A DNA stretch of 64,000 bases from Gemmatimonadales bacterium. Its GTDB lineage: Bacteria > Gemmatimonadota > Gemmatimonadetes > Gemmatimonadales > GWC2-71-9. Shown here in pieces: positions 27,543-43,225 of the stretch. Below the pieces are notes generated by a model that saw nothing but the letters and a program-made list of their open reading frames with translations, was not told the origin of the DNA and did no database searches. The DNA is taken from positions 9,957 to 73,956 of the forward strand of contig DASWII010000024.1 in NCBI GenBank assembly GCA_036397755.1, in the 5' to 3' direction. Position 1 is the first letter of the stretch. Each line of letters starts with the position of its first letter. The position numbers and the translations under genes were made by a program.

Positions 27543-28355
27543 CTACCGCATCTCGAACGTGAGTGTCGCCCACTTGGATTCGTAGTCGACGGGCGAAGCC
27601 TCGTCCAGAGACACCATGTTGATGAACTTGATATACCACCGGCCGGCCCGATCGATCGTGAACCGTAGCACGCCGTCGGCATCCGTTCGCCCCGACCGTT
27701 CCGAGATCGCGACGCCCCCCACCCCGATTCCGCCAATCAACACGAACTGCCCGGGGACCGCGCGGCCGTCCACCAGGCACCGGACCGCGAGCGCGTCGCC
27801 GACTCGCAGGTTGTAGGGGTTGTCCAGCGGCACGACCTCTGCTGGATATCCCAGGACGATGTCGAACCCCTCGGACCGTGCCTCGCCGACCTGAAAGACC
27901 GCCTTCACGTGCTTGCTGTACCGTTCCGCGACGTCGACATCCAGTTGCCCCGCCCGACGGCGAGCTTCCAGCACATCGGGGATGCCGTCGTGCTCCAGAT
28001 ACTCGTTGAACTCGTTCGCCGTGAGCTCGAAATCCGTGTGTCGGGTCGACGCCCCCATGACATACGTCCCCGCGGCCGCCGTGCGGATTCCGATGAACGT
28101 GGTGTCGCCGGCGGCCGTCCAGTCCTTCAAGTCGATCGGCCGCCGCCGACCGGCCACGACCAGACTGGCGTCGCTCACACGGTTCACAGCGATCGCGTTC
28201 TCGCTCGCGACAAAGGTCCCGTTGATGAGTGGGACCTGAACGGCCGAATTCGGCTGGAGGAAGTACGTGTTCAGCTTGATGAACATGTCGTGCGCGAGGG
28301 CGGCGGTGGCCACGCTCATTAGGCCCAACCCAACGGCGGCGAGTCTCTTCCACAT
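27543..28355 (-). CDS. DUF4198 domain periplasmic protein (NikK/CbiK-like metal-uptake associated)
   Basis: Signal peptide MWKRLAAVGLGLMSVATAALAHD followed by an all-beta sequence (HDMFIKLNTYFL...). Start taken at Met10. Confidence 0.75.
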   Translation of the reverse strand: MWKRLAAVGLGLMSVATAALAHDMFIKLNTYFLQPNSAVQVPLINGTFVASENAIAVNRVSDASLVVAGRRRPIDLKDWTAAGDTTFIGIRTAAAGTYVMGASTRHTDFELTANEFNEYLEHDGIPDVLEARRRAGQLDVDVAERYSKHVKAVFQVGEARSEGFDIVLGYPAEVVPLDNPYNLRVGDALAVRCLVDGRAVPGQFVLIGGIGVGGVAISERSGRTDADGVLRFTIDRAGRWYIKFINMVSLDEASPVDYESKWATLTFEMR

Positions 28356-28403
28356 GAGACAGTCCTTTCGTTGCGGGATCACCCTCTCAGCATTTCGCGG
28401 TCG

Positions 28404-29168
28404 TTAGCCGGGTGGGGAGAGGCGCCCACCCGTTTCGAGGTATTCGGCGAACTCGTTGGGGAGCGAGCTGGCGAGGATCGCCGCCTTCGCCCGGTCGAGA
28501 TCGTACGCGACCCGGATGAACTCGACCGTCGCCGCGTGGCCGGTCATATTCAGCAAGACGTACCCAGCACGCCAGTCACCGTCCTTGGGGCGGCCGACCG
28601 AACCCGTGTTCAGGAAATGGATCCCCTTGATCTCGCGATACCACGGCTGATGGGTATGGCCGAACGCAATGACGTCCCCGGCCCGCAGTCCCGCATTGCG
28701 AGCCATCTTGAGACAGAACGCATCAGATCGATCCTCGGTCCAATAGACCGTGTTGAGCGTCGGTGTGCCATGCACCAGGACGAGCTTCGGTCCGCCACTG
28801 TGGCCACCCTGTGGATGGAGATCCATGCGGAAGGGCAAGGTTCCGAGATACGCACGGGTGTCTTCGGTGACGTGCTCCAGCGTCCACCCGTAGCTTTCGT
28901 GCGACAGTGCTTCCTGCCGCGGGTCTTCGTACCTGCAACCGCAATGCTTGTAGCGCACAGCCACGGTGGAGTCATAATTGCCGCTGACTCCGGCGATCCC
29001 GTGCGTTCGCAGCAAGCTCACGACCTCGTTTGGCCATGGCGCATATCCCACGAGGTCGCCCAGATGAAAGCACCGGTGTCGCGCATCATCATGCCGCGCC
29101 AAGTCCTTCAGCACTGCCTCGAGGGCAGGCAGGTTGGCGTGTACGTCGGATATCAAGACGTAGCGCAC
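28404..29168 (-). CDS. Metallophosphoesterase family protein (YfcE/MJ0936-like)
   Basis: Motifs VLISDVHAN, GDLVGY, GNYD, LVHGTP and FGHTH. The GTG at 29168 is preceded by GGAGG. It overlaps the acr3 stop by 16 nt. Confidence 0.8.
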   Translation of the reverse strand: MRYVLISDVHANLPALEAVLKDLARHDDARHRCFHLGDLVGYAPWPNEVVSLLRTHGIAGVSGNYDSTVAVRYKHCGCRYEDPRQEALSHESYGWTLEHVTEDTRAYLGTLPFRMDLHPQGGHSGGPKLVLVHGTPTLNTVYWTEDRSDAFCLKMARNAGLRAGDVIAFGHTHQPWYREIKGIHFLNTGSVGRPKDGDWRAGYVLLNMTGHAATVEFIRVAYDLDRAKAAILASSLPNEFAEYLETGGRLSPPG

Positions 29169-30259
29169 GGCCCTGCCTCCGGCACAGCCGGGGTCTCGGT
29201 CTGCTGGTCCTCGAACCAGTGTCGAGTCGCGACGCACACCCGGCACACCGAAAGCATCACCGGTACCTCTACCAGGACCCCGACCACCGTCGCGAGCGCA
29301 GCGCCCGAGTCAGCCCCATAGAGGGCGATCGCCGTAGCGACCGCCAGCTCGAAAAAGTTCGACGCCCCGATGAGGGCTCCGGGTGCCGCGATCCGGTACG
29401 GAACGCGAAACAGCCGCATGAGTCCATAGGTGAGCGACGAGTTGAAGTAGACCTGAAGCAGGATGGGAATCGCAATCAACACGACATGAAACCAACGCGT
29501 CGTGATGTTCTCGGCCTGAAACGCAAAGATACACATGAGCGTGGTCAGAAGCGCCAGCACCGTAATCGGAGCGAAGAGCGGCAGGTAACGCCCGTTGAAC
29601 CACGCGAGACCCCGCCGAGCGATCAACACTCGACGGCTGATCGATCCGGCCACGAGGGGTACCACCACGAAAATGACGACCGAGTAGACAAGGACCTCAA
29701 ACGGGACCTCGAGGCCCGACGCGCCTGTCACGAGGAGCGTCACGATCGGGACGAACGCGACCAACATGATGAGATCGTTTACCGAGACCTGCACCAACGT
29801 GTACGCGGGGTCGCCGTCGGACAAATACGACCACACGAAGACCATGGCGGTGCACGGCGCCGCCGCCAGGATGATCACCCCGGCGATGTATTGGCTCGCG
29901 AGGTCCTCTCCGATGAGCGGGAGGAAGAGGTGTCTGAAAAACAGCCAGCCGAAGAACGCCATCGAGAAAGGCTTGACGAGCCAATTCACGAACACCGTCA
30001 CGAACAGACCCGTAGGCCGCTTGCCGACGTCCTTGATCGAGGTGAAATCGATCTTCAGCATCATGGGGTAGATCATGAGCCAGATCAGGACGGCGATCGG
30101 GATGTTGATGTGACTGCCGTCACCGAACTCGAGATCACGCAGACTGCCGACCACTCCGGGAACGAGCTTGCCGATCGCGACGCCGAGCACCATGCAGAGC
30201 GCCACCCAAACGGTGAGGTAACGTTCGAACACGTTCATCTGCCTCGCGGTATCACCCAT
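29153..30259 (-). CDS. acr3: ACR3 family arsenite efflux transporter
   Basis: FERYLTVWVALCMVLGVAIG and IAVLIWLMIYPMMLKIDF with about 10 TM segments. Start at Met36 (30259) or Met43 (30238). Confidence 0.9.
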   Translation of the reverse strand: MGDTARQMNVFERYLTVWVALCMVLGVAIGKLVPGVVGSLRDLEFGDGSHINIPIAVLIWLMIYPMMLKIDFTSIKDVGKRPTGLFVTVFVNWLVKPFSMAFFGWLFFRHLFLPLIGEDLASQYIAGVIILAAAPCTAMVFVWSYLSDGDPAYTLVQVSVNDLIMLVAFVPIVTLLVTGASGLEVPFEVLVYSVVIFVVVPLVAGSISRRVLIARRGLAWFNGRYLPLFAPITVLALLTTLMCIFAFQAENITTRWFHVVLIAIPILLQVYFNSSLTYGLMRLFRVPYRIAAPGALIGASNFFELAVATAIALYGADSGAALATVVGVLVEVPVMLSVCRVCVATRHWFEDQQTETPAVPEAGPCATS

Positions 30260-30671
30260 GGTCCGGCGTCCCCGCGGCGACCGTGGTTCTGAAGATTGAC
30301 AGCACCTCGAGATCCAGATCGACGCTGCAGAGTCGCTCCACGGGAACCGCCCGAAGCTGTCCAACGATGCGCCGGTCGCTGGCGATCTGGTCGTCGTCCC
30401 GCAGGCGATCCCACACAGGGGCTAGCATGGCGCGCTCCGGATCGGTGGTCGCAAGCGCATAGTGGACCCACCGGCCGTCTCTACGTTCCGTGATCAGCGC
30501 TGCCCGCCGAAGCTCGGCCAGATGAGCGGAGACCGTTGAAGGAGCCAAGTCGAGCACGGCGGTGATTTGACAGGCGCAGAGTTCGCCGTCACGCAGCATC
30601 GAGGCGATGCGGAGTCGCGCCGGGTGTCCTAACGCTTTCAGAACGCGTGATGTCGAGGCGAGGTCCATCAT
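30252..30671 (-). CDS. arsR: ArsR/SmtB family metalloregulator
   Basis: LKALGHPARLRIASMLRDGELCACQITAVLDLAPSTVSAHLAELRRA is a winged HTH carrying the ELCxC metal-site motif. Confidence 0.9.
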   Translation of the reverse strand: MMDLASTSRVLKALGHPARLRIASMLRDGELCACQITAVLDLAPSTVSAHLAELRRAALITERRDGRWVHYALATTDPERAMLAPVWDRLRDDDQIASDRRIVGQLRAVPVERLCSVDLDLEVLSIFRTTVAAGTPDHG

Positions 30672-30740
30672 TTCGTCACTTCGCGAATTACAGCACTGAA
30701 TGTAACCGAAGTCGGAACCATGTGAATATCCGTGCGGGCC

Positions 30741-30772
30741 TTGACTCTATACCATGGTATAAGGTTTACACT
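30741..30772 (+). promoter_or_regulatory. MerR-type promoter: -35 TTGACT, overlong 19-20 bp spacer holding a perfect 14-bp palindrome (TATACCATGGTATA), -10 TACACT
   Basis: Read directly: cTTGACTcTATACCATGGTATAaggttTACACTag, ending about 25 nt upstream of the merR ATG. Confidence 0.6.
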
Positions 30773-30795
30773 AGTGATTGTTGGAGGGCACACGC

Positions 30796-31197
30796 ATGAC
30801 GATGACCATTGGGCAGGTAGCGTCCGGGGCCGGGGTCAACATCCAAACCGTCCGGTATTACGAGCGCCGCGGTCTGCTCCCCAAGGCGCCGCGCACCCCG
30901 TCGGGATATCGCCAGTACGATCCCGAGGCCGTCGCGCGACTCCGATTCATCAAACGGGCGCAGGAACTCGGGTTCTCGCTGGAAGAGGTCGCCGAGCTCC
31001 TCGAACTGCGGGTTGAGCACGGTGCTGCCTGCCAGGCGGTTGAGTCCAAGGCCAAGGAGAAGATTGCGATGGTCGAGAGCAAGATCGGCGAGTTAGAAAG
31101 AATGAAGGCGGTCCTGGTCGAGCTTGCGCGGGCGTGTGACGTCCGCGAACCGACGAGCGACTGCCCGATTCTCGCAACCCTCAGCGAGGACGCGTGA
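30796..31197 (+). CDS. merR: MerR family Hg(II)-responsive transcriptional regulator
   Basis: MTIGQVASGAGVNIQTVRYYERRGLLP HTH. Three Cys (GAACQ, RACD, SDCP) are spaced like the MerR Hg-binding cysteines. GGAGGG lies 7 nt upstream of the ATG at 30796. Confidence 0.88.
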   Translation: MTMTIGQVASGAGVNIQTVRYYERRGLLPKAPRTPSGYRQYDPEAVARLRFIKRAQELGFSLEEVAELLELRVEHGAACQAVESKAKEKIAMVESKIGELERMKAVLVELARACDVREPTSDCPILATLSEDA

Positions 31198-31382
31198 TCA
31201 AGGCGACGGTGACGGCGGTCGGCGCGGCGGCAGCCGGCGGCGTTCATTGCGGAGCTGACCCGGCTCACCGGGTTCACCGCTGTCGTGGGTACCACGCACG
31301 ACGGCAGAATCGCCCCGCCGGTAGCTGACAGCACGCCTCAGGGCAGAGACACCATCACAGTTCGAGATTGAGGAGAAGCAAC

Positions 31383-33041
31383 GTGTCAGAGCGGATCGAG
31401 TTGGAAGTACGAGGTATGACGTGCGACGGGTGCGCACGCCACGTAACGGCGGCGTTGCATGAGATTCCCGGGGTGATTCACGCCGAGGTGCTTGGGTGGG
31501 AAAGCCACCACGCGGTCGTTGACGCGGAGCCAGGGATCGGAGCTACACGGCTCCAAGCGGCCGTGGCCGCAGCCGGCTACGAAGCCAGAGTCACGGCACG
31601 TCACGCGAGCTCCACCGTTGCCCGCGCACCAGCGGACAGCGCCGCTGACTTCGATCTGCTGGTGATCGGGGCCGGCTCCGCGGGATTCGCTGCGGCGATC
31701 AAGGGAGTGGACCTGGGGTTCCGGGTCGCCCTGACCGGCGACGGTCCGCTGGGAGGAACCTGCGTGAACGTCGGGTGCGTCCCCAGCAAGACGCTCATCC
31801 GCGCCGCCCACGTGTGGTATCGCGCAGGACGTCACCCCTTCAAGGGGGTTGGGACCTCCCAGGTGGCATTGGATTGGAACGCGGTGAGGGACGAGAAGAA
31901 CGCCCTGGTAGATTCGATGCGACAAGAAAAGTATGCGGACGTGCTCGCCGCCTATCCCGCGATCACGTTTTTCTCCGGGCGCGCGCGCTTCCAGCGTGAC
32001 GGAACCGTACGGATTGGCGATCGAGCCTTCCGCGCCGAGAAATACCTCGTGGCGACGGGCGCGGTGCCGCGCATGGTTCCGATCCCTGGCGCCGCTGAGG
32101 CCGGGGTGCTCACAAGCACCACCGTGATGGATCTGCCCGCGCTTCCAGAATCGCTGATCGTACTTGGCGGCCGGGCGGTAGCGCTCGAGCTGGGCCAGGC
32201 CATGGCACGATTCGGAGTCCGGGTGACGATTCTCCAGCGGAGCAGCAGCATCATTCCGGAGCACGACCCCGAAGTGGGCCGGGCGCTGACGGAGGCGCTG
32301 GTCAATGAAGGCATCGAGATCGTAACCGATGTACACACAGAACGCATCGATCGCGACGACGACCAGCGCTTCGTGCGCGCGTCGGTCAACGGACAGGAGA
32401 AGGTCTTCCGAGCGGAGCAGATTCTGATGGCATTGGGCCGAGAGCCGCAGACCGCCGGATTAGGTCTGGAAGACGTCGGAGTCGAGCTGGATGAGCGAGG
32501 TGCCGTGCTCGTCGATGCGGGCCTGCGAACGTCGAACCCCCACGTGTACGCCGCTGGTGATGTCACCAACAACCCCGAGTTCGTCTACGTTGCCGCCGCT
32601 GGCGCTGCGGTGGCCGCCGAGAACGCATTGACGGGTGCCGATCGACGTCTGGACCTGTCAGCAATGCCGGGTGTCATCTTCACCGATCCTCAAGTGGCGA
32701 CGGTCGGCCTAACCGAGGCCGCCGCGGTGCAGGCGGGCCTCGACGTCCGGACCTCCACCCTGCCCCTCACGCACGTGGCCCGCGCTCTCGCCGCGCGGGA
32801 CACCCGTGGCCTGATCAAGCTCGTGGCCGATCGCGCGACGGGGCGGATTGTGGGCGCGCATGCCGTGGCCGCGGAAGCCGGGGAGCTCATTCAGACAGCG
32901 GTGCTGGCGGTCAAGCATGGTCTCACCATCAACGATCTCGCGGGGACGCTTTTCCCATACCTCACCATGGTTGAAGGTCTCAAGCTGGCGGCGCAGACGT
33001 TCGATAAGGACGTGTCGAAGCTGAGTTGCTGCGCGGCCTGA
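31383..33041 (+). CDS. merA: Mercuric reductase MerA with N-terminal HMA (NmerA) domain
   Basis: GMTCDGCARHV (HMA domain), redox-active GGTCVNVGCVPSK and the C-terminal vicinal Cys pair KLSCCAA. The GTG at 31383 follows GAGGAG. The track start, TTG at 31368, is the alternative. Confidence 0.95.
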   Translation: MSERIELEVRGMTCDGCARHVTAALHEIPGVIHAEVLGWESHHAVVDAEPGIGATRLQAAVAAAGYEARVTARHASSTVARAPADSAADFDLLVIGAGSAGFAAAIKGVDLGFRVALTGDGPLGGTCVNVGCVPSKTLIRAAHVWYRAGRHPFKGVGTSQVALDWNAVRDEKNALVDSMRQEKYADVLAAYPAITFFSGRARFQRDGTVRIGDRAFRAEKYLVATGAVPRMVPIPGAAEAGVLTSTTVMDLPALPESLIVLGGRAVALELGQAMARFGVRVTILQRSSSIIPEHDPEVGRALTEALVNEGIEIVTDVHTERIDRDDDQRFVRASVNGQEKVFRAEQILMALGREPQTAGLGLEDVGVELDERGAVLVDAGLRTSNPHVYAAGDVTNNPEFVYVAAAGAAVAAENALTGADRRLDLSAMPGVIFTDPQVATVGLTEAAAVQAGLDVRTSTLPLTHVARALAARDTRGLIKLVADRATGRIVGAHAVAAEAGELIQTAVLAVKHGLTINDLAGTLFPYLTMVEGLKLAAQTFDKDVSKLSCCAA

Positions 33042-33181
33042 TCTCTCCCTGCGTGCCGAGAGCGTGCGACCAGCATCACCAAGCTTGGCTCAGGCATGTG
33101 GGGGCAATGATCGGCCGACGGGCTCCTCCCCGGAGGCCGGCCCGCTACATTACCCTCTGCCCCGACCTCCAGGTGCATCGA

Positions 33182-33631
33182 ATGGCAATGGCCCTCCGCA
33201 TCCCGATCATGATCGCCGTCCTCGCGGCACTCCCGAACCTCACCCGCGCGCAGGCGCCAAGCCCCGCTTTGGCCGCGGTCGCAGCGTTTCACTCGGCCAT
33301 GGAGGCCGGAGACAGTGCCACCGTACTCTCACTTCTCCATCCGGACGTCGTCGTGTTCGAGTCCGGACGCATGGAAGCCGGGCGCGATGAGTACCGATCC
33401 CATCATCTTGGCGCGGATATGGAAGCCGCCCAGGGCCTCACGCGCGACGTGACGTTCGAGGAGTCGGGCGGATCCGGAGATGTAGCGTGGGTGATCGCGC
33501 GGACGCGCACCACCGGGGCGTTTCGCGGTCGCGAGATCGACAGTGAGGGAGACGAGACGATGGTGCTTCGCCATACCGAGGCGGGGTGGCGCATCGTTCA
33601 CATTCACTGGTCGCAGCGCCCGCGCCGCTGA
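33182..33631 (+). CDS. Secreted SnoaL-like / DUF4440 (NTF2-fold) protein
   Basis: Signal peptide MAMALRIPIMIAVLAALPNLTRAQA. FHSAMEAGDSATVLSLLHPDVVVFE...GWRIVHIHWS is typical of the NTF2-like fold. Confidence 0.7.
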   Translation: MAMALRIPIMIAVLAALPNLTRAQAPSPALAAVAAFHSAMEAGDSATVLSLLHPDVVVFESGRMEAGRDEYRSHHLGADMEAAQGLTRDVTFEESGGSGDVAWVIARTRTTGAFRGREIDSEGDETMVLRHTEAGWRIVHIHWSQRPRR

Positions 33632-33709: not shown

Positions 33710-36700
33710 TCAGCCGCCTGGCTCCAACGCCGCGCGGTCCAGCAACGCTCCGCCAACTGCCGCCTCGGGTCGGTGCCGAACTTGCCAGCTGCGCCAAAGC
33801 AGATAGATGGCCGGGATCACCACCAGGGTGAGCACCGTGGACGTCACCATCCCGCCCACCATGGGCGCCGCGATGCGCTTCATCACGTCCGCACCGGTGC
33901 CCTGACTCCACAGAATCGGGGCCAGACCTGCCGTGATGGCGATGACGGTCATCATTTTGGGACGTAGTCGCTCCACCGCGCCCTCTCGCACCGCCTCGGC
34001 CACGTCCGTGCGCGAGCGCATCCGCCCCTCGCGGTCCCGATGGTGGAACGCCTCATCCAGATAGATCAGCATCACCACGCCGGTCTCGGCGGCCACGCCA
34101 GCCAGCGCGATGAAGCCCACCCACACCGCGACACTGGTGTTGTACCCCGCCAGCCAGATGTACCAAATGCCTCCCACCAGCGCGAACGGAACCGAGAGCA
34201 TGACGATGACCGACTCGGTCACGCCCCGAAAATTGAGATACAGCAGCAGGAAGATGATGCCGAGGGTCACCGGCACCACTAGGCGCAGCTTCTGGGCCAC
34301 GCGCTGCATGAACTCGTATTGCCCGCTCCAGGTGAGCGTGTAGCCTGTCGGGAGCTGGAGCTGCTGCGCCACCGTGCGTTGGGCATCCCGCACGTAGCTG
34401 CCCACGTCGCGCCCTTCGATGTCCACGAAGATGGTGGTGACGGGAAACGCATCTTCCGTCTTCACCGCCATCGGTCCCTGCACCACCTGAATGGTGGCAA
34501 CCTGGCCGAGGGGAATCTGGGTGATCCTCCGCGGGAGGCCGCCGGCGTTGCCGCCGTTTCCCACATCACTCATGCCGCCGCCGGTAGCCATGCCACCCAT
34601 GCCGGCCACCGCCGGGATGACCACTTCGCGGAGCTTCTGCAGGTTGTCGCGCAGCTCTCTGGGATATCGCACGTTCACCGCGTAGCGCTCCCGGCCCTCG
34701 ACCGTGGTGGCCGCATCCATGCCGCCGACCGTGGCCATGATGGCGTTGTGGATGTCGCCCACGTTGAGCCCGTAGCGGGCGGCTTCGGCACGGTCGATTT
34801 CGATGTCCACGTAGTAGCCGGAGACGCCCCGCTCGGCGAAGGCGCTGCGGGTGCCGGGGACCTGCTGGACAATGCGTTCGGCCCGCTCGCCCAGGGCCTG
34901 GAGCGTGTCGAGGTTCGGGCCGAAAATCTTGATCCCCACCGCCGTCCGGACCCCGGTCGCGAGCATGTCGATCCGGCCCTTGATAGGCATGGTCCAGGCG
35001 TTGGTGACGCCGGGCAGCTTGACCGCCCCGTCCATCTCGGCAATGAGCCGCTCGTAGGTCATGCCGCGGCGCCACTCCCTCTCGGGCTTCAGCGTGATGG
35101 TGGTCTCGTACATGTCCAGGGGCGCCGGATCGGTCGCCGTGTTCGCCCGACCTGCTTTGCCGAGCACGGTCTCGACCTCGGGGAACGAGGCCAGGACGCT
35201 GTCCTGGTAGCGCATGATTTCGCGCGACTGGGCGATGGAGACGCCCGGCACCGTGGTCGGCATGAAGAGCACGGAGCCCTCGTGCAGCTGTGGCATGAAC
35301 TCGCTCCCCAGCCGGCTCCAGGGAAGCACGGTAACGAGCAGCGCCACGGCGGCGCCGGCGATCACGATCCACGGCCGCCGAATAGCGAACTCGATCACGG
35401 GCCGGTACGCCCAGCGCAGCGCCCGGTTGACCGGGTTCTGCGCCTCGGGCCGGATCTTGCCGCGAATCAGATACCCCATCAGGACCGGGACCAGCGTGAT
35501 GGAGAGCAGTGCCGCACCGGCCATCGCGAAGGTCTTGGTGAACGCCAGCGGCTTGAACAGCCGGCCCTCTTGCTGCTCCAGCGCGAACACCGGCAGGAAG
35601 CTGAAGGTGATGATCAGGAGCGAGAAGAACAGCGGCGGGCCCACCTGCTTGGCACTCGCCAGCACAATCTCCCAGCGCGAGGCTGTGCCGTCGGCCCGCT
35701 CGAGGTGCTTGTGCATGTTCTCGATCATCACGATGGCGGCGTCCACCATGGCGCCGATGGCGATGGCGATCCCGCCCAGGCTCATGATGTTGGCGTTGAC
35801 CCCGATCCAGCGCATCACGATGAACGAAATCAAGATGCCCAGGGGCAGCGTGATGATGGCCACCAGGGCGGATCGGGCATGGAGCAGGAACAGGATCGCG
35901 ACGCCGGCCACGATGAGCGACTCCTCGATCAACTTCTCCTTGAGGTTGTCGATGGCGCGGTGGATCAGATCGCTTCGGTCGTAGGCCGTGCGGATGCGCA
36001 CGCCCGGCGGAAGGCCGGCCTTGATCTCCTCGAGGCGGGCCTTGACCGCTTCGATGGTCTTGAGCGCGTCGGTCCCGAACCGCATGACCACGATGCCGGC
36101 CACGACCTCGCCTTTGCCATTCAAGTCGGCGGCACCGCGCCGCGGGGCGGGCCCGATTTGCACCGTGGCGATGTCGCGCACCCGGATCGGCGTCCCGTTG
36201 GGCGTGATCCCCACCGCTACGTTCTCGATGTCCCGCACCCCCTCCAGGTAGCCCAGGCCGCGGATCATGTACTCGCGGCCGCCCATCTCCAGCACCCGCG
36301 CGCCGATGTCCGCATTGTGGGACCCGATCGCCTGCGCCACCCGGGTCACCGGGATATTGAAGGCCCGCAGCCGCTCCGGGTTGACCTCAACCTGGTACTG
36401 CTTCACGAACCCGCCGAGGCTGGCCACTTCCGAAACGCCGGGAACGGCCGTCAGCTGGTAGCGGATGTACCAGTCCTGCAGCGTTCGGAGCTGCGCCAGG
36501 TCCAGGCTGTCGGATTCGAGTGTGTACTCGAACACCCAGCCCACGCCCGTGGCGTCCGGCCCCAGCGTGGGCTCCACGCCGCCGGGCAGGCGCTGGCGGA
36601 TGCCGTTCAGGTACTCCAACACGCGGGACCGCGCCCAGTAGATGTCGGTGCCGTCCTCGAAGATCACATAGACCAGACTTAGGCCGAAGAACGAAAAGGC

Positions 36701-36949
36701 GCGGACCACCCGCGTGCCCGGCACCTTGAGCATCTCGGACGCGATGGGGTAGGTAACCTGGTCTTCCACGATCTGCGGCGCCTGCTCGCTGAAGTCGGTC
36801 TGGATAATGACCTGCACGTCCGACAGATCGGGTATGGCATCGAGAGGCGTGGTCGCCATCGCCCAGACGCCGCCGCCGATCAACCCAACCGTGGCCAGCA
36901 ACACCAGCCCCCGGTTGCGCAGCGACCAGGCGATGATGCCGTTAATCAT
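33710..36949 (-). CDS. CusA/CzcA family heavy-metal efflux RND permease
   Basis: 1079 aa. The N-terminus MINGIIAWSLRNRGLVLLATVGLIGGGVWAM..LDAIPDLSDVQVII is the hallmark of HME-RND pumps. Confidence 0.95.
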   Translation of the reverse strand: MINGIIAWSLRNRGLVLLATVGLIGGGVWAMATTPLDAIPDLSDVQVIIQTDFSEQAPQIVEDQVTYPIASEMLKVPGTRVVRAFSFFGLSLVYVIFEDGTDIYWARSRVLEYLNGIRQRLPGGVEPTLGPDATGVGWVFEYTLESDSLDLAQLRTLQDWYIRYQLTAVPGVSEVASLGGFVKQYQVEVNPERLRAFNIPVTRVAQAIGSHNADIGARVLEMGGREYMIRGLGYLEGVRDIENVAVGITPNGTPIRVRDIATVQIGPAPRRGAADLNGKGEVVAGIVVMRFGTDALKTIEAVKARLEEIKAGLPPGVRIRTAYDRSDLIHRAIDNLKEKLIEESLIVAGVAILFLLHARSALVAIITLPLGILISFIVMRWIGVNANIMSLGGIAIAIGAMVDAAIVMIENMHKHLERADGTASRWEIVLASAKQVGPPLFFSLLIITFSFLPVFALEQQEGRLFKPLAFTKTFAMAGAALLSITLVPVLMGYLIRGKIRPEAQNPVNRALRWAYRPVIEFAIRRPWIVIAGAAVALLVTVLPWSRLGSEFMPQLHEGSVLFMPTTVPGVSIAQSREIMRYQDSVLASFPEVETVLGKAGRANTATDPAPLDMYETTITLKPEREWRRGMTYERLIAEMDGAVKLPGVTNAWTMPIKGRIDMLATGVRTAVGIKIFGPNLDTLQALGERAERIVQQVPGTRSAFAERGVSGYYVDIEIDRAEAARYGLNVGDIHNAIMATVGGMDAATTVEGRERYAVNVRYPRELRDNLQKLREVVIPAVAGMGGMATGGGMSDVGNGGNAGGLPRRITQIPLGQVATIQVVQGPMAVKTEDAFPVTTIFVDIEGRDVGSYVRDAQRTVAQQLQLPTGYTLTWSGQYEFMQRVAQKLRLVVPVTLGIIFLLLYLNFRGVTESVIVMLSVPFALVGGIWYIWLAGYNTSVAVWVGFIALAGVAAETGVVMLIYLDEAFHHRDREGRMRSRTDVAEAVREGAVERLRPKMMTVIAITAGLAPILWSQGTGADVMKRIAAPMVGGMVTSTVLTLVVIPAIYLLWRSWQVRHRPEAAVGGALLDRAALEPGG

Positions 36950-38189
36950 GATTGTGCTCCGGCATCGGTATACTGTCGGGTTTGACTTTCGGCACCGAAG
37001 CGGTGTCCGCGCCGTGCTCCATGCCCGGCATGGCGCTTCCGGTACTCGCCAGCCGAGACTCGGCGTCGACCAAGAAGTTGGCTGCGGCTACGATGGTCAG
37101 GCCCTCGGTGAGGCCCCCGAGGATCTCTACCTGATCTCCGGCACGGGCACCGAGCACCACCTCGGCGGGCGTCAACACGCCCTCGCTATCCCGCACGAAC
37201 ACCAGGTTGCGCTGGCCCGTCACCACCACCGCCTCGGACGGCACCGCGATGACATTGGTGCGCTCGACGTCAAAGTAGATCGTGGCATACATGCCCGGTT
37301 TGAGCCGCAGCCCCGGATTGGGCACGGTAACACGCACTCGATTGGTGCGGCTGTCCGGATCCACCGTGGGATAGACGAAGCTCACCCGCCCCATCAGGTG
37401 CTCGCCAGGATAGGCTGCCACCTCGATGTGGGCCTGCGAGCCCACCCTCACGAACTGGAGGTCCTGCTCGAACACGTCGCCTTCCGCCCACACGGAGGAC
37501 AGGTCGGCAATGCGATACAGGCGCATCCCCGGCATGACCTGCTGGCCCTCGAGCACGTTTTTCTCAAGCACGATGCCATTCACCGGAGAGACGAGAGTCA
37601 GCGTCTTGGTGATCTCGCCTGATCGCTCGACCTCCTCGATCTGCTGCGGGGTAATGTCCCAATAGGCCAGGCGGCGCCGGGCAGCGACCAGCGTCGCCTG
37701 CGCGTTGGTCCAGGTCTCGCCCGCCGCGGAATCCACCTGCGTCGCCAGCCGCCGGGCCGTGAGCAGTTCCTGTTGCGCCGCCACCAGCATGGGGCTGTAG
37801 ATCGTGAGCAAGGGCTGGCCCTGCCGCACGGCCTGGCCGGTGTAGCTCACGGACAGGTTCTCGGCGAAGCCGTCGATCTTCGGCGTCACGTCGGCGATTT
37901 GGGGCTCCGGAGCCGCAACCGTCCCCACGGTCCGGATGGTGCGCGTCAGGGTCCCGCGCCGGACCGTGGTGTAGATCACGCCCAGCGCACGCTCCTGCGC
38001 GGCCGTCAGGTGCACCGGCTGGCGCATGACCGCGCCGGTGGTGTCGACCGCGCCTTGCGCGCCGCCGGCTTGCATGCGCGCGTGTTCCTCCGCCGTCATA
38101 CCCCCCAGTGGCACATCGTCCGCCTTTCGCTCGCACGCGCCAACAAGGAGGGCCGCGGCGGCGAGCAGCAACAACAATCGGCCGCTCAT
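36942..38189 (-). CDS. Efflux RND periplasmic adaptor (CusB-like membrane fusion protein), lipoprotein
   Basis: The ATG at 38189 forms an ATGA overlap with the upstream OMF stop. MSGRLLLLLAAAALLVGAC is the lipobox. Barrel-sandwich/beta-barrel MFP signature (FVRVGSQAHIEV, ...VVVTGQRNLVFV). The upstream 121 codons of the listed ORF are implausible. Confidence 0.9.
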   Translation of the reverse strand: MSGRLLLLLAAAALLVGACERKADDVPLGGMTAEEHARMQAGGAQGAVDTTGAVMRQPVHLTAAQERALGVIYTTVRRGTLTRTIRTVGTVAAPEPQIADVTPKIDGFAENLSVSYTGQAVRQGQPLLTIYSPMLVAAQQELLTARRLATQVDSAAGETWTNAQATLVAARRRLAYWDITPQQIEEVERSGEITKTLTLVSPVNGIVLEKNVLEGQQVMPGMRLYRIADLSSVWAEGDVFEQDLQFVRVGSQAHIEVAAYPGEHLMGRVSFVYPTVDPDSRTNRVRVTVPNPGLRLKPGMYATIYFDVERTNVIAVPSEAVVVTGQRNLVFVRDSEGVLTPAEVVLGARAGDQVEILGGLTEGLTIVAAANFLVDAESRLASTGSAMPGMEHGADTASVPKVKPDSIPMPEHNHD

Positions 38190-39493
38190 CGGACGCCTCC
38201 GATCTCCGCTCCCACCAACGCCGCGATCTCGGCCACGGCCTTGTGATAGCCGGCCACCAGTCGCACACTCTCGGTCTCGTAGCGATTCACCGTCATCTGA
38301 TTCTCCACTAGGCTCATGTAGTCCACCCTGCCCACCCGATACGCCGCCAGCGCCGCGTCCACCGAGGCCCGCGCCTGCGGTACGATGGACGTCGCATACA
38401 GGCTCGCCAGGTTGAGGCTCTTTGCGGCATCCGCCCGTATCTCGACCAGCATCGCGAACGTCTCGTTGGTGAGATCGAGGGCCTCGGCCTCCGCCATCGC
38501 CTGCATCGCCAGCATCTCCCGGCGCATCGGGAGCTGGCGCCGGCCGGCCCAAATCGGCAAACGGACGCCCACCATGAAGGTGGCCATGTCGTCGAACGCG
38601 GGGCGCTGGCCGTAGCTCACGCCCAGCATGACATCGGGATACAACTCGCGCCGCGCGGCCCGGTAGCCCGCTTCGGCGGCGCCCGCGCGCTGGCGCGCCG
38701 CCTGAAGCTTGGGCCGCCGAGCGTCGGCCAGCGCCATAAGCGAGTCCACGCCAGGCAACGAGCGGTCGGGCGCGGGCAGTTCCAGAGCGCCGATCGGCAC
38801 CGTCGCCTCTCGGCCTAAGAGCGCGTTTAACCGACCGGCCATCGCGATCCGCCCCTGGGCCATCGCGGTGATCTCTTCGGTCATGCGGGCGACGCCGACC
38901 TGCGCTTGGAGCACGTCCTGCTGGAGTCCCGAGCCTACGGCGTACATGGTCAGCGAGACTTGGACGAAATCCCGCAGCAGATCCCGCGACTCTCCCATCA
39001 GCGCGAGCGCGCGATCCATGTAGGCGAGGTCGTAATAGACACTCTTGACACGGGCGACCAGCATCAGCTCAGCATCTTCCGCGTCGAGCTGATCGGCGCG
39101 AGCCAGCCGCTCAGCCCGAAGCTTGGCAAAGCTCAGCATGCCCGGCCAGGGCAGCATCTGCGTCAGCTGGACCTGGTTCATCGTCATGGGATCCATGGTC
39201 GACCCAAGACTGCCGACCATGCGGTTCATCAGGCCCAGTGACAGCTCGGGGTCGGGCAACGTGCTGACTTGCGGTATGCGCTCTAGCGCCGCTTCGGCCT
39301 TGAGCCGGGCGGCGCGCAGCATGGGGTTGCCCGAGCGGGCCTGCGACAACGCTTCCGAGAGGCGAAGCGTGTCCCCGGGAGTGGGTGTTTGCAGTGTAGC
39401 ACTCGCTGGTGCGGCAAACAGCAGCGCGAGCACAACCATCCTGGTCGCGCGCCTCATGCCGCCACCGCTCTGAGGCGGGGTGAAGTTGCTCAT
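38186..39493 (-). CDS. TolC-family outer membrane efflux protein (CusC-like)
   Basis: LRLSEALSQARSGNPMLRAARLKAEAA plus duplicated OEP repeats. Start at Met109 (39493, AGAGGA upstream) or Met121 (39457). Confidence 0.85.
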   Translation of the reverse strand: MSNFTPPQSGGGMRRATRMVVLALLFAAPASATLQTPTPGDTLRLSEALSQARSGNPMLRAARLKAEAALERIPQVSTLPDPELSLGLMNRMVGSLGSTMDPMTMNQVQLTQMLPWPGMLSFAKLRAERLARADQLDAEDAELMLVARVKSVYYDLAYMDRALALMGESRDLLRDFVQVSLTMYAVGSGLQQDVLQAQVGVARMTEEITAMAQGRIAMAGRLNALLGREATVPIGALELPAPDRSLPGVDSLMALADARRPKLQAARQRAGAAEAGYRAARRELYPDVMLGVSYGQRPAFDDMATFMVGVRLPIWAGRRQLPMRREMLAMQAMAEAEALDLTNETFAMLVEIRADAAKSLNLASLYATSIVPQARASVDAALAAYRVGRVDYMSLVENQMTVNRYETESVRLVAGYHKAVAEIAALVGAEIGGVR

Positions 39494-39537
39494 GGGGTTT
39501 CTATTCCTCTTCGCGTACGATCCTGGCACTGCCGTGT

Positions 39538-39553
39538 CGCAGGAAGCACACCA
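39538..39553 (-). promoter_or_regulatory. Candidate sigma-54 (-24/-12) promoter for the RND operon
   Basis: The minus strand reads TGGTGTGCTTCCTGCG, with the correct GG-N10-GC spacing against the consensus TGGCACG-N4-TTGC. The GC lies 46 nt upstream of the ATG at 39493. Confidence 0.35.
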
Positions 39554-40079
39554 AACCATGAAGTAACGTAACCCGTTACGACACTGATCTTTACAATGTT
39601 CGATCGGGATTGGTGACCGATCGCCCGCCGCCAGGACCCGCGGCCGTTGGGGCTTTTGCCCCACGAGGTCAGCCGCGCCCTGGACCCAACGGCGGCGGAA
39701 CAACACGCCACGGGCCACACATGCTCGACTCCTCGGTCCCACGAATCGAGCTACGGGCGGTCTGAACGCGGGGGCTGCGCTCCGCATCGCCGCGGTTGCT
39801 ATGCGGAGCGCTTTCATCGCTTCACCTCAGTCCGATCGGTTGTCGACCATCCCCCCTCGAGAATGCGCACTCGCTGCCGGTCGCTGAGGTCCCAGACTTG
39901 CGCCTGTTCTCGAGGACGAAGCAACTTGAACACCGCAGGTGACAGGTGCCTAACTGTCGCAGTTCCAGGAGATTGGCTGCGCCACCGCGACGCGTGACCC
40001 TCGACATGCACGGGGCGATTGGCCCGAGCGCCGGGGGAAATGACCCGCACACCAACGCACGAGGGCAACGACGATCCAG

Positions 40080-41831
40080 GTGGGGAGAAGTTTGGTGCTC
40101 CGCGACAAGCTCCTCGCGTTGCTGTTCGCCTTCGGCGCCGTTCCTCTGGCCGTCGCGATCGCCGTGAGTTATGCGGTGGGCAAGAGCACAGTGACGCGGC
40201 AGGCGGAAGCGGCCTTGCGCGAGCTGACACAAACGCAAGCGGTTCATCTGGCCACCGAGCTGAGCCGCCAGCGACTGCTGTTGCGCACAATCGCGGGCCA
40301 GGTGCCTCGTTCGGCGGAACGCGGGCGTATGTCTTCAACCCGCCTGGCGCAGCTCCTGGTGCAGGGGCTGCCGGAGGGTGGCGTGTTCGATGGCCTGCGG
40401 ATCGTGCTCCCGGACGGCCGGATCCTGGCTAGTGTGGCCTTGGGAAACACGGCGCCGCACTGGCCGCCGCAGGCGCCGGCGGAGGAGTGGACCGACACCC
40501 GTGTCGTCGTACACCGCGAGGGCGACCGCGTATGGGCGTACCTCGTCGCCGTGCAGCTGCACGACACCACCGCGATTGCCTGGCTCGAGGGTCACGTCCG
40601 AACGGAAGACTTCCGCCGGGTGTTCGCGGTTCCGGCACACCTCATGGAGGGCGCCGAGTCAGGCGTCTTCGAGTCGAGCGGCGCGCCGATCCTGGTGGGG
40701 CACGAGCATGCCAGCCCCGGCCTCGCCGCCATGTTCGCGTCCGTCAGCGGAGACACGGCGGGAGTGTTCCGCGCACCCGTCGCCGGACAGCGCTCGCTCG
40801 TGGCTCTGGCACCGGTTCCCACGACGGATTGGGTGTTCGCCACCGCCCTCCCGCTGGACATCGCCCTGGCGCCGCTCGCCCGGCTGCGCAACACGGCGCT
40901 GCTGAGTTCCCTGGTGTTCGTGGTGCTCGTTGTCTTCACGGCCGCCTGGGCCGCACGGTCGGTGACCACTCCGCTCCGTCAGTTGGCCGACGCGGCGCGC
41001 CACTTCGGACGGACCGGCACGCACTGGCCGGTGGCCGCCCATGGAAGTGCCGAGGTCGCCCTGCTCGTGGAGGCGTTCAATCGAATGGCGGGCGATCTGG
41101 ACGCCTCGCGCGCGGAGGTCGAACGCTTGCACGCGCAGGAAATGGAGCGGGCGCAGCAGCTTGCCACCGTTGGTGAGCTGGCCAGTGGTGTGGCCCATGA
41201 GATTCGCAACCCCTTAACGGGCGTGCTGGGAGCGCTCGACCTCGCGTTGAAGAGTTCGGCGCCGCAGAATGCCGCACGGCCGTTGCTGGAGGAAGCCGGG
41301 CGCCAGCTCCGCCGCATCGAGCGCACGACACAGCAACTCCTGCGCTACGCCCGCCCGCCGGAGCTGCGAGAGGTGACGGTGGACGCCAACGAGCTCGTGG
41401 CGCGGGCCGCCCAGCTGGTTGCTCCACAGGCGAGCGCGGCAAGCGTCACGTTGCGAACGGAGCCGGAGGTGGAGGCGGTGCCGGTCCAGGTAGACCCGGA
41501 ACTCATCGTGCAGGTGCTGGTCAACCTGATGTTGAACGGGATCGAGGCCATGTCGGGTGGTGGCGACTTGACGGTCTGGGTCACGCACCATGCGACGGAG
41601 GTGTGGATCGGGGTGCGCGACACCGGGCCGGGCATCGCCGCCGAGCGACGGTCGCAAATCTTTCGGCCGTTCTTCACGACCAAACACACGGGCACCGGCC
41701 TCGGCCTGTCCATCTCGCGCCAGATCGTCGTGCGACACGGCGGATCGCTGCGGCTGGAGGACACACCCGGCGGGGGAGCGACGTTCGTGGTCGCCCTGCC
41801 TCTGGCCGAAACGACGGGGAGGCCATCGTGA
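40080..41831 (+). CDS. Sensor histidine kinase (two TM helices, ~250-aa periplasmic sensor, HAMP, HisKA, HATPase_c)
   Basis: H-box ELASGVAHEIRNPLTGV, N-box LVNLMLNGIEA and G-boxes DTGPGI / GTGLGLSIS. An alternative GTG start at 40095 follows GGGGAGAAG. Confidence 0.85.
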   Translation: MGRSLVLRDKLLALLFAFGAVPLAVAIAVSYAVGKSTVTRQAEAALRELTQTQAVHLATELSRQRLLLRTIAGQVPRSAERGRMSSTRLAQLLVQGLPEGGVFDGLRIVLPDGRILASVALGNTAPHWPPQAPAEEWTDTRVVVHREGDRVWAYLVAVQLHDTTAIAWLEGHVRTEDFRRVFAVPAHLMEGAESGVFESSGAPILVGHEHASPGLAAMFASVSGDTAGVFRAPVAGQRSLVALAPVPTTDWVFATALPLDIALAPLARLRNTALLSSLVFVVLVVFTAAWAARSVTTPLRQLADAARHFGRTGTHWPVAAHGSAEVALLVEAFNRMAGDLDASRAEVERLHAQEMERAQQLATVGELASGVAHEIRNPLTGVLGALDLALKSSAPQNAARPLLEEAGRQLRRIERTTQQLLRYARPPELREVTVDANELVARAAQLVAPQASAASVTLRTEPEVEAVPVQVDPELIVQVLVNLMLNGIEAMSGGGDLTVWVTHHATEVWIGVRDTGPGIAAERRSQIFRPFFTTKHTGTGLGLSISRQIVVRHGGSLRLEDTPGGGATFVVALPLAETTGRPS

Positions 41832-43225
41832 GCGGCAAAGACCGGCTGGTTCTGGTGGTGGACGATGAGAACCTCATTCGCGTGTGGCTGGAGGCGCACC
41901 TGGGCGAGTCAGGCTACCAGGTGGCCGTCGCCGAGAACGCGGCCAAAGCAAGAGCGGCGTTCGCGACGACCCCCCCAGCGGCCGCGCTGCTCGACCTGAA
42001 GTTGCCCGACGGCTCGGGCCTGGATCTGCTACGGGAGTTCCTCGAGGCGGATCCCGAGCTGGTGGCCGTGATTCTCACGGCACACGGCGACATCGGCACG
42101 GCGGTGGAGGCAGTGAAGCTGGGTGCGTATCACTTCCTGGAAAAGCCTCCCAAGCTCGAAGAACTGGTGGTCACGCTCGAGAAGGGCCTGGAGACCCGGG
42201 CCCTCAAGCGCACGGTTTCGGCGCTGCGCCGGCAGGCCGGCTGGCAGTTCGCCGGCGTCGAAGTCGTGGGACGGTCGCAGGCCATGCAGCGGGTGGTGGA
42301 TCTCGTCGGGAAGGTGGCGGCCAGTGAGGGCACCACGGTGCTGGTGCGTGGGGAGAGCGGCGTGGGGAAGGAAGTGGTGGCCCGCGCAATCCACGCGCAG
42401 AGCGCCCGGTGGGAGTCCCCCTTCCTCGAAATCAACTGCACGGCACTTCCTGAGACGTTGCTCGAGTCCGAGTTGTTCGGGCACGAGCGAGGGGCCTTCA
42501 CCGACGCGAAGGAACGGAAGCAAGGGCTCCTCGAGCTGGCCGACCACGGAACGATCTTGCTGGATGAGATCGGCGATCTGCCAGCCGGTTCGCAGGCGAA
42601 GCTGCTGCGTTTCCTGGAGACGCGGACGTTCAAGCGCGTCGGAGGAGTACGGGACATCACGGTGGACGTGCGCATCATCGCGTCCACCAACCGCGACCTG
42701 GAGGCGGGGGTGCGGGACGGCACATTTCGGAGGGATCTCTTCTTCCGCTTGAACGTGATTCCCATCGTCATTCCGCCGTTGCGCGAACGCCCAGAGGACG
42801 TCGAGCCGCTGGCGCACCATTTCCTGCAAGCGATGACCACGGCCCTCCGCCGCCCGGCGCGGCAGATACCGCGTGACTCGCTGGCCATGCTGGAGCGCTA
42901 CGCGTGGCCCGGCAACGTGCGGGAGCTCAAGAATGTGATCGAACGGGCCGTGATCCTCGAGGAAGGCCCGGAGATTTTGCCCGCGCACCTACCGGACGAG
43001 CTCAAGCCGGGCGGGCGGGCGCTGGATCTCGAACCCGGTTTCCGGCTTCCGGCGGGCGGGATCAATCTCGAGGAGCTGGAGAAGGATCTACTCCTGCAGG
43101 CTCTTGAGCAGTCGCGCGGCAACAAGACGCGGGCGGCCGAATTGCTGGGACTCACCCGTGACACGCTCCGCTATCGAGTCGAGAAGTACACTCGCTCAGG
43201 CAAGGCCGAGGCGGGCGGGAACTGA
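41828..43225 (+). CDS. Sigma-54-dependent response regulator (NtrC/ZraR class: REC, AAA+, Fis-type HTH)
   Basis: The GTG at 41828 overlaps the kinase stop (GTGA). REC domain LVLVVDDE...LLDLKLPDGSG, Walker A GESGVGKE, sigma-54 contact loop ERGAFTDA (a GAFTGA variant) and C-terminal HTH NKTRAAELLGLTRDTLRYRV. Confidence 0.9.
   Translation: MSGKDRLVLVVDDENLIRVWLEAHLGESGYQVAVAENAAKARAAFATTPPAAALLDLKLPDGSGLDLLREFLEADPELVAVILTAHGDIGTAVEAVKLGAYHFLEKPPKLEELVVTLEKGLETRALKRTVSALRRQAGWQFAGVEVVGRSQAMQRVVDLVGKVAASEGTTVLVRGESGVGKEVVARAIHAQSARWESPFLEINCTALPETLLESELFGHERGAFTDAKERKQGLLELADHGTILLDEIGDLPAGSQAKLLRFLETRTFKRVGGVRDITVDVRIIASTNRDLEAGVRDGTFRRDLFFRLNVIPIVIPPLRERPEDVEPLAHHFLQAMTTALRRPARQIPRDSLAMLERYAWPGNVRELKNVIERAVILEEGPEILPAHLPDELKPGGRALDLEPGFRLPAGGINLEELEKDLLLQALEQSRGNKTRAAELLGLTRDTLRYRVEKYTRSGKAEAGGN

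Follow-up and report, generated by a model that had tools for sequence, protein, structure and literature searches.

Which promoter and which regulator drive the CusCBA-type pump encoded by a Gemmatimonadales bacterium on contig DASWII010000024.1 (assembly GCA_036397755.1, positions 9,957 to 73,956)? Copper and silver pumps of the resistance-nodulation-division (RND) family are the textbook case of control by OmpR-type two-component systems (CusRS/CzcRS). For this stretch of 64,000 nucleotides, hereafter the window, an earlier sequence-only reading had proposed that the pump is driven by a sigma-54 promoter under the two-component system encoded next to it. We followed up this proposal by computational means throughout, and it finds strong comparative-genomic support in 9 of 9 orthologous upstream regions, in a fixed spacing and in synteny. 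Accordingly, we consider it likely that the pump depends on sigma-54 and that the adjacent NtrC-type system controls it. The locus is best explained, with a similar degree of confidence, as a sigma-54-dependent copper/silver stress system conserved across Gemmatimonadota.

The locus consists of the following genes, mapped by open reading frame (ORF) listing, translation and profile searches (Pfam, NCBIfam):

33710-36949, minus strand: CusA-type heavy-metal RND permease, 1079 aa (TIGR00914 CusA/CzcA, 1193.6 bits against a cutoff of 701).
36942-38189, minus strand: CusB/CzcB-like membrane-fusion protein (MFP), 415 aa (Pfam HlyD_D23, 1.3e-77).
38186-39493, minus strand: outer-membrane factor (OMF), 435 aa, first gene of the pump operon (Pfam OEP, 4.8e-39).
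40095-41831, plus strand: sensor histidine kinase, with a transmembrane segment, a periplasmic dCache-like domain of about 235 aa, a second transmembrane segment, HAMP, HisKA and HATPase.
41828-43225, plus strand: NtrC-class response regulator, that is, an enhancer-binding protein (EBP), with REC, AAA+ sigma-54 interaction and HTH_8 domains.

The OMF-MFP-RND operon is arranged as first described, with an ATGA overlap between OMF and MFP and an 8-nt overlap between MFP and RND, and the Pfam and NCBIfam matches bear out its domains. Its likeness to CusCBA also holds. In addition to its TIGR00914 match, the permease scores 1141 bits against E. coli CusA compared to 540 against ZneA, and its motif in the fourth transmembrane segment, AIGAMVDAAIVMIEN (A-x5-D-x6-E), is the same as in CusA. 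Three of its methionines align with the methionine triad of CusA (M573, M623 and M672), the Cu(I)/Ag(I) site. Judged by scores and residues, the permease is of the CusA type (Cu(I)/Ag(I)) and not of the CzcA type. The MFP matches the NCBIfam models for CzcB/NccB and CusB, all below cutoff. No cusF is found in the pump operon, where the three genes overlap or abut and leave no room for a fourth ORF. The longest ORF containing the OMF spans 38186-39817 on the minus strand (543 aa); the ATG at 39493, with GAGGAA upstream, is the real start, and the gene caller picks the same 435-aa product on the identical Joint Genome Institute (JGI) contig.

The domain architecture of the response regulator excludes control of the CusRS/CzcRS (OmpR) type. 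Response_reg, Sigma54_activat (6.7e-67), AAA_lid_14 and HTH_8 are all above their Pfam cutoffs, while Pfam finds no Trans_reg_C domain, so that the protein is not an OmpR/PhoB winged-helix regulator. The Walker A motif GESGVGKE and the sigma-54 contact loop GAFTDA, which the sequence-only reading had pointed out, are both present. GAFTDA is a variant of GAFTGA and is kept in all 29 orthologues in which the loop motif was found. The same variant occurs in DVU2106 of D. vulgaris, an EBP to which a regulon has been assigned; PMC4641369 describes the variant as compatible with activation. By domains and motifs, the regulator is thus a complete NtrC-class sigma-54 activator. Its gene is coupled to the kinase gene by the GTGA overlap that had been noted.

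Next, we examined the region upstream of the pump, where four elements make up or adjoin a first promoter module (module 1):

39538-39553, minus strand: sigma-54-type -24/-12 element of module 1, TGGTGTGCTTCCTGCG (GG at 39552-39551, GC at 39540-39539).
39569-39578, minus strand: conserved YAA-N4-TTR core, TAACGGGTTA, resembling a site for integration host factor (IHF), inside dyad 1 (39563-39579).
39601-39623, no strand assigned: dyad 2, CGATCGG-N9-CCGATCG, present and not conserved.
39648-39663, no strand assigned: candidate upstream activating sequence of module 1, the perfect palindrome TGGGGCTTTTGCCCCA, missed by the sequence-only reading.

The -24/-12 element lies 46 nt upstream of ATG 39493, and a predicted start near 39527 gives a leader of about 34 nt. 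We aligned nine non-redundant orthologous pump upstream regions, the window included. These regions are otherwise diverged, and the only invariant blocks are GGG..CCC, AA-N4-TT, GG and TGC. All nine contain the palindrome (at least 9 of 12 matches) and a GG-N10-GC element at 104-107 nt from its centre, counted from the first G of GG; in the window the distance is 104 nt. The -24/-12 element is therefore conserved among orthologous pumps, with GG and TGC invariant in every region.

The palindrome TGGGGCTTTTGCCCCA is the sole 12/12 match in the 64-kb window and its GGG...CCC is invariant in 9/9 regions. We propose it as the actual candidate enhancer, in place of the two dyads to which that role had been given. 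Dyad 1 (GTAACG-N5-CGTTAC) is present, but it is too close to the promoter for an enhancer and overlaps the YAA-N4-TTR core between enhancer and promoter. This core, whose AA and TT are invariant in the nine regions (consensus TCAAnGAnTTA), matches the IHF consensus, WATCAANNNNTTR, and from this we infer an IHF-like site that would bend the DNA. Dyad 2 is likewise present as written, but it has no counterpart in the 8 other pump upstream regions and is probably not functional. We also considered the GGGGC-AAAA-GCCCC hairpin as a terminator and rejected it, as it lacks a T tract and is unreported by the terminator scan. Because its distance to the promoter is fixed, we read the hairpin as a protein site.

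The spacing is not restricted to pump promoters. Related Gemmatimonadota loci (given L-numbers) came from a genome scan (5) and a metagenome scan (48), and about 50 were used for comparison. Defining a strong palindrome as TGGGGC-AWWT-GCCCCA with at least 10 of 12 matches and an AT-rich centre, we obtained 59 across all loci. Around them, outward-facing GG-N10-GC elements are found 42 times in the 5-nt window at 103-107 nt, compared to 7.8 expected, and the module 1 element falls inside this peak. For spacers of N8, N9, N11 or N12, the best 5-nt window anywhere reaches only 15-18. A profile of 43 elements follows the sigma-54 consensus TGGCACG-N4-TTGCW at the positions that the search did not force: position -14 is T in 40 of the 43, -15 is T in 32, -20 is G in 31, and -23 is C or T in 41. 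For L003, an N11-spaced AGGCAC...TGCA candidate was rejected on spacing, and the proper element, CGGTGCAACTCGTGCG, lies at 104 nt. In most modules, a second and weaker dyad is located about 21 nt closer to the promoter than the main palindrome, which is what one would expect of an oligomerising EBP.

These data bear on a different view of the element, namely that the GG-N10-GC block is an operator or part of a lineage-specific sigma-70 or extracytoplasmic function (ECF) promoter, with the palindrome as a repressor or activator site. The elements do deviate from TGGCAC-N5-TTGC (CCC for CAC, and often CTGC), the module 1 copy in the window is weak by position weight matrix (PWM), the consensus used for comparison may not be that of Gemmatimonadota, and the conservation of GCAACTT with CTTGCGCC next to the kinase gene could serve a sigma-70 promoter on the other strand. 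Nevertheless, the peak is specific to exactly N10, and the positions left free by the search agree with the sigma-54 consensus. An activator site some 105 nt upstream and an IHF-like core in between also make up the classical sigma-54 layout, and the sole regulator encoded at the locus is an EBP, which requires sigma-54. We therefore regard this view as decidedly improbable and retain the sigma-54 promoter.

What do the modules control? The genes behind them encode the pump, CopA, Cupredoxin_1, LTXXQ/Metal_resist, CopC, YHS and PCYCGC proteins, a small membrane protein and a multicopper oxidase. By these families, the genes downstream of the modules are a copper regulon. In the usual layout, RND<-MFP<-OMF, cupredoxin<-CopA and a reductase dependent on flavin adenine dinucleotide (FAD) are all divergent from kinase->regulator. 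In L004, L021, L030 and L044 the pump is convergent and lies downstream of the regulator gene. Across about 50 loci the two-component system is linked to copA, cupredoxin and pump, whether divergent, convergent or 4-5 kb apart, and because this linkage persists through rearrangements we consider the system to be tied to the copper genes.

The regulator that binds the palindrome is most likely the adjacent one, going by position and linkage. Alternatively, the palindrome could be bound by another EBP encoded elsewhere, the adjacent system controlling something else or only part of the set. The loci were selected through the kinase, which builds in co-occurrence, and Gemmatimonas aurantiaca is listed with several EBPs (supplement of PMC3162934). 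Against this, most orthologous loci have a palindrome 35-100 nt ahead of the kinase gene, the two-component genes stay linked to module-bearing copper genes despite rearrangements, the loci examined contain no other EBP gene, and searching the window in all six frames returned a single GAFT[GDAS]-type motif. We judge binding by a distant EBP to be unlikely, and binding by the adjacent regulator remains our preferred reading.

The 586-bp gap between OMF and kinase genes contains a second module (module 2) and the trace of a lost gene:

39773-39817, minus strand: remnant of the 5' end of a deleted LTXXQ (ZraP/CpxP-like) gene, ATG 39817, beginning MKALRIATAAMRSAA.
39920-39935, minus strand: sigma-54-type -24/-12 element of module 2, CGGTGTTCAAGTTGCT, facing the pump.
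40011-40047, no strand assigned: tandem dyads of module 2, CGGGGCGATTGGCCCGA (40011-40027) and CGGGGGAAATGACCCG (40032-40047), at the position orthologous to the palindromes of relatives.

The module 2 element is of a type, YGG-N4-GAAGTTGCY, shared by about 30 of 45 kinase loci (the window included), where it precedes the kinase start by about 140 nt. It is 106 nt from its palindrome centre. Relatives have stronger palindromes at the same position, for example TGGGGCAAATGGCCCG in L003, and their elements face LTXXQ, reductase or copA genes. In the closest relatives, L064 and L065, whose kinases are 83% and 73% identical, a methionine- and histidine-rich LTXXQ protein (CpxP/Spy/ZraP family) is the product of the first divergent gene; next come the reductase gene and, at least in L064, copA. 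In L001 the LTXXQ homologue is matched by Pfam LTXXQ/Metal_resist. Window positions 39773-40083 align at 70% to L065 2579-2881, including the first ~15 LTXXQ codons (MKALRIATAAMRSAA compared to MKAILTGITALFSAA). No gene for LTXXQ, FAD reductase, copA or cupredoxin was found anywhere in the window. Because the L065 alignment ends within the LTXXQ start and the block is absent from the window, we conclude that an LTXXQ-FAD reductase-copA-cupredoxin block was deleted.

The deletion has fused module 2 to module 1 and left the pump with two tandem sigma-54-type promoters. It also explains the seemingly empty DNA and the long in-frame, ATG-initiated OMF extension. The sequence-only reading had reported about 460 bp here without a convincing gene; there is indeed no intact gene, yet both module 2 and the ~15-codon LTXXQ remnant had been missed. 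A hidden gene in the gap was rejected, the ORFs of at least 25 aa being of low complexity and not conserved. The 543-aa OMF extension was also rejected: it consists of the leftover LTXXQ start codon and non-coding DNA, and by our own estimate its 108 stop-free codons have a chance of about 7% at this GC content. Rfam elements or riboswitches were not found in 39400-40200 at E values up to 1.

The deletion may also have left a decayed, non-inducible arrangement in which modules 1 and 2 are too weak and the pump is silent or runs on an unrelated promoter. Neighbouring regulon genes have clearly been lost, and the module 1 promoter and module 2 palindrome of the window are among the weakest copies. 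However, all five genes are intact with overlaps and catalytic motifs preserved, the module 1 palindrome is a perfect 12/12 match, and the module 2 -24/-12 element fits the family consensus. Such decay is thus very improbable in our view, and we continue with a functional sigma-54-dependent pump.

Turning to the signal, the kinase start is more likely GTG 40095, behind GGAGAA, than the alternative GTG 40080; the gene calls of the identical JGI contig include a 578-aa kinase. Pfam identifies HAMP, HisKA and HATPase_c, and no Pfam family matches the periplasmic domain. That the kinase has a large periplasmic sensor (about 250 aa had been given, compared to about 235 aa here) agrees with our map. 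An AlphaFold2 model of the sensor built with 42 homologues has a pLDDT (predicted local distance difference test) of 83. Foldseek relates this model to the dCache sensors PctA/B, Mlp24/37, McpB, KinD and DctB (E values of 1e-7 to 1e-12), so the sensor is predicted to have a dCache fold. Residues D104, R107, W128, W137, H145, E170 and H172 are invariant and, by secondary-structure map, fall in the membrane-distal module. A search for the sensor domain among 5.8 billion proteins yielded 134 clusters, with orthologues in Gemmatimonadota only. We tentatively propose, while holding it to be somewhat short of probable, that this kinase family is a new class of periplasmic metal sensor that would bind copper or silver directly, its membrane-distal pocket carrying the invariant residues. 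It would drive a phylum-specific sigma-54 copper regulon whose ~106-bp enhancer-to-promoter geometry is unusually rigid, and the pump would be the first defined CusCBA pump under sigma-54.

As for the promoter of the kinase operon itself, a sigma-54 promoter on the plus strand of the window was rejected, the only candidate being the chance-level, non-conserved TGGCTGCGCCACCGCG. Separately, we observed CTTGCGCC at exactly 17 nt from GCAACTT on the kinase strand (window 39896-39927 and equivalents in about 30 loci), kept in kinase-proximal modules. It may be the -35 region of a promoter for the kinase and regulator genes that stands back-to-back with module 2; alternatively, it may belong to the leader of that module. 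In a subgroup of loci (L018 5929-5944, L025 600-615, L027 661-676, and L028) the palindrome CGGGGCTTTTGCCCCG is flanked on both sides by GG-N10-GC at 69-71 nt. Since one of these elements faces the kinase gene, the two-component operon may itself be sigma-54-dependent there.

Several points weigh against sigma-54 control of the pump by the adjacent system. Taken alone, the module 1 element is no better than chance, with a weak match (CTGC) in the -12 region. It scores 5.5 bits by a PWM that is our own approximation of the published sigma-54 consensus, and by interpolation roughly 0.7 sites reach such a score in each kb of either strand. The pattern TGG-N9-TGC is found 48 times in the window, compared to 37.7 +/- 5.6 in shuffles. 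We therefore rejected pattern and PWM alone as proof. The element becomes significant only because it is conserved in related upstream regions, so that of the original claim the location and the exact GG-N10-GC spacing stand, while its significance was gained through the 9/9 conservation. The module 2 palindrome of the window matches at 8/12 only and is weak alone. An inward-facing control gave a smaller peak of 24 at 139-143 nt. The spacing counts are inflated because many modules are orthologous copies next to the kinase; independent support comes from the same geometry at non-orthologous promoters. Every related locus was collected via the kinase, which builds the co-occurrence of palindrome and regulator into the sample, and the contig with an identical kinase (L066) is 100% identical to the window and no independent strain. 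A sigma-70 consensus promoter was not found in 39400-40200 at the thresholds of the scan, a weak negative as the sigma-70 consensus may not be that of Gemmatimonadota. As to the signal, dCache domains usually bind small organic ligands rather than metals. The genome of the window itself is covered for 64 kb only. On the supporting side, the supplement of PMC3162934 lists a sigma-54 gene for strain T-27 of Gemmatimonas aurantiaca, the type species of the phylum.

Weighing these points, we infer both the use of sigma-54 and copper as the signal, and propose the following mechanism. The kinase would sense periplasmic copper or silver stress, directly or indirectly, through its dCache-like domain and phosphorylate the NtrC-type regulator. 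The regulator would then bind TGGGGC-AWWT-GCCCCA, usually together with the weaker second dyad about 21 bp off. With the DNA bent over the IHF-like site, it would spend ATP to open the sigma-54 holoenzyme on GG-N10-GC, the -24 GG lying 103-107 nt from the palindrome centre. In the window, the deletion has taken the LTXXQ-FAD reductase-copA-cupredoxin block, so that module 2 now reads into module 1, and pump and two-component system have become immediate divergent neighbours.

Among the closest known systems is CorSR of M. xanthus, a copper-responsive sigma-54 two-component system that controls copA and a Cupredoxin_1 (PF13473) protein via several predicted -24/-12 promoters (PMC3707914). CorSR shares with our locus a histidine kinase and a sigma-54-dependent REC-AAA+-HTH_8 regulator, and the copA and Cupredoxin_1 families also belong to the Gemmatimonadota regulon. 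The key sensor residues of CorS are H34, H38 and H171 (PMC10100754), and these positions imply a sensor much smaller than the ~235-aa dCache-like domain here. The CorSR genes differ in lying inside their target operon (the curA operon), an RND pump is not among the reported targets, and the passages of PMC3707914 consulted define no enhancer sequence for CorR; the two systems are compared by description.

The sigma-54-dependent ZraPSR system (HydHG) of E. coli and Salmonella resembles our locus in being divergent from a periplasmic LTXXQ-family gene, as in the closest relatives of the window. The NCBIfam models for ZraS and ZraR match our kinase core and regulator, respectively, although far below the equivalog cutoffs (187.9 compared to 479 and 347.6 compared to 760). 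It differs in that the LTXXQ protein of Gemmatimonadota is methionine- and histidine-rich and in that the regulon comprises copA, cusCBA, CopC and multicopper oxidase rather than zraP alone. The window itself has no intact divergent LTXXQ gene but the ~15-codon remnant, whereas L064, L065 and L001 have the gene. The contrast first drawn with ZraSR is therefore only half right, as the closest relatives have their two-component system divergent from a ZraP-like LTXXQ gene. With CusRS-CusCFBA and CzcRS the locus shares a CusA-type pump with methionine triad, a CusB-like adaptor, and the divergent orientation of pump and two-component genes. Here, however, an NtrC-class EBP takes the place of the OmpR winged-helix regulator, and the promoters belong to the -24/-12 type. 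In addition, the operon lacks cusF, and the sensor is dCache-like and not CusS-like. A literature search of incomplete coverage returned no characterised sigma-54-driven cusCBA operon.

We also noted a number of features besides the main subject. A metal-resistance neighbourhood adjoins the pump at 27543-33631 of the window:

27543-28382, minus strand: DUF4198 protein.
29153-30364, minus strand: SBF/ACR3-like transporter.
31368-33041, plus strand: MerA-like mercuric reductase with an HMA domain and a C-terminal CC pair.
33176-33631, plus strand: SnoaL/DUF4440 protein.

Elsewhere in the window, the best canonical sigma-54 match is TGGCACAGGGGATGCT at 1641-1656 on the minus strand. It is intergenic, about 175 nt upstream of a minus-strand signal-peptide ORF (ATG 1464), and a TTGACA...TGATAC pair lies nearer that start. 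Among the related loci, a gene for an 85-aa glycine-rich predicted membrane protein without Pfam match stands between module and OMF (L029 6620-6890, L022 1-330). In several loci (L017 9300-9810, L020 7900-8340 and L021 1300-1720), the kinase-proximal promoter is followed first by the gene for a conserved secreted protein of about 140 aa (motif GRVTLELWPQWRDTVLVVQVRA), also without Pfam match. In two loci from other lineages (L042 8750-9000, L043 3130-3290), where the pump is near the kinase, the gene that immediately precedes the pump module codes at its end for an HMA-like domain, which resembles the degenerate N-terminal HMA repeat of the local CopA.

Taken together, a whole phylum appears to run its copper defence, namely pump, P-type ATPase, multicopper oxidase, CopC and ZraP-like chaperone, through sigma-54 and one EBP. 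Beyond the known sigma-54 metal systems (CorSR and ZraPSR), this would be a phylum-wide regulon with a defined site and a rigid spacing. With site and spacing defined, the regulon model can be put to the test in Gemmatimonadota, a poorly studied phylum that is abundant in soil, and the promoter module is compact enough to be searched for in metagenomes to predict copper-responsive genes. The window also illustrates one way in which a regulon may be rewired, namely by a deletion that joins two promoter modules. Finally, the sensor of the kinase is a candidate new type of metal-sensing domain, and the dCache kinase may represent a new kind of metal sensor.

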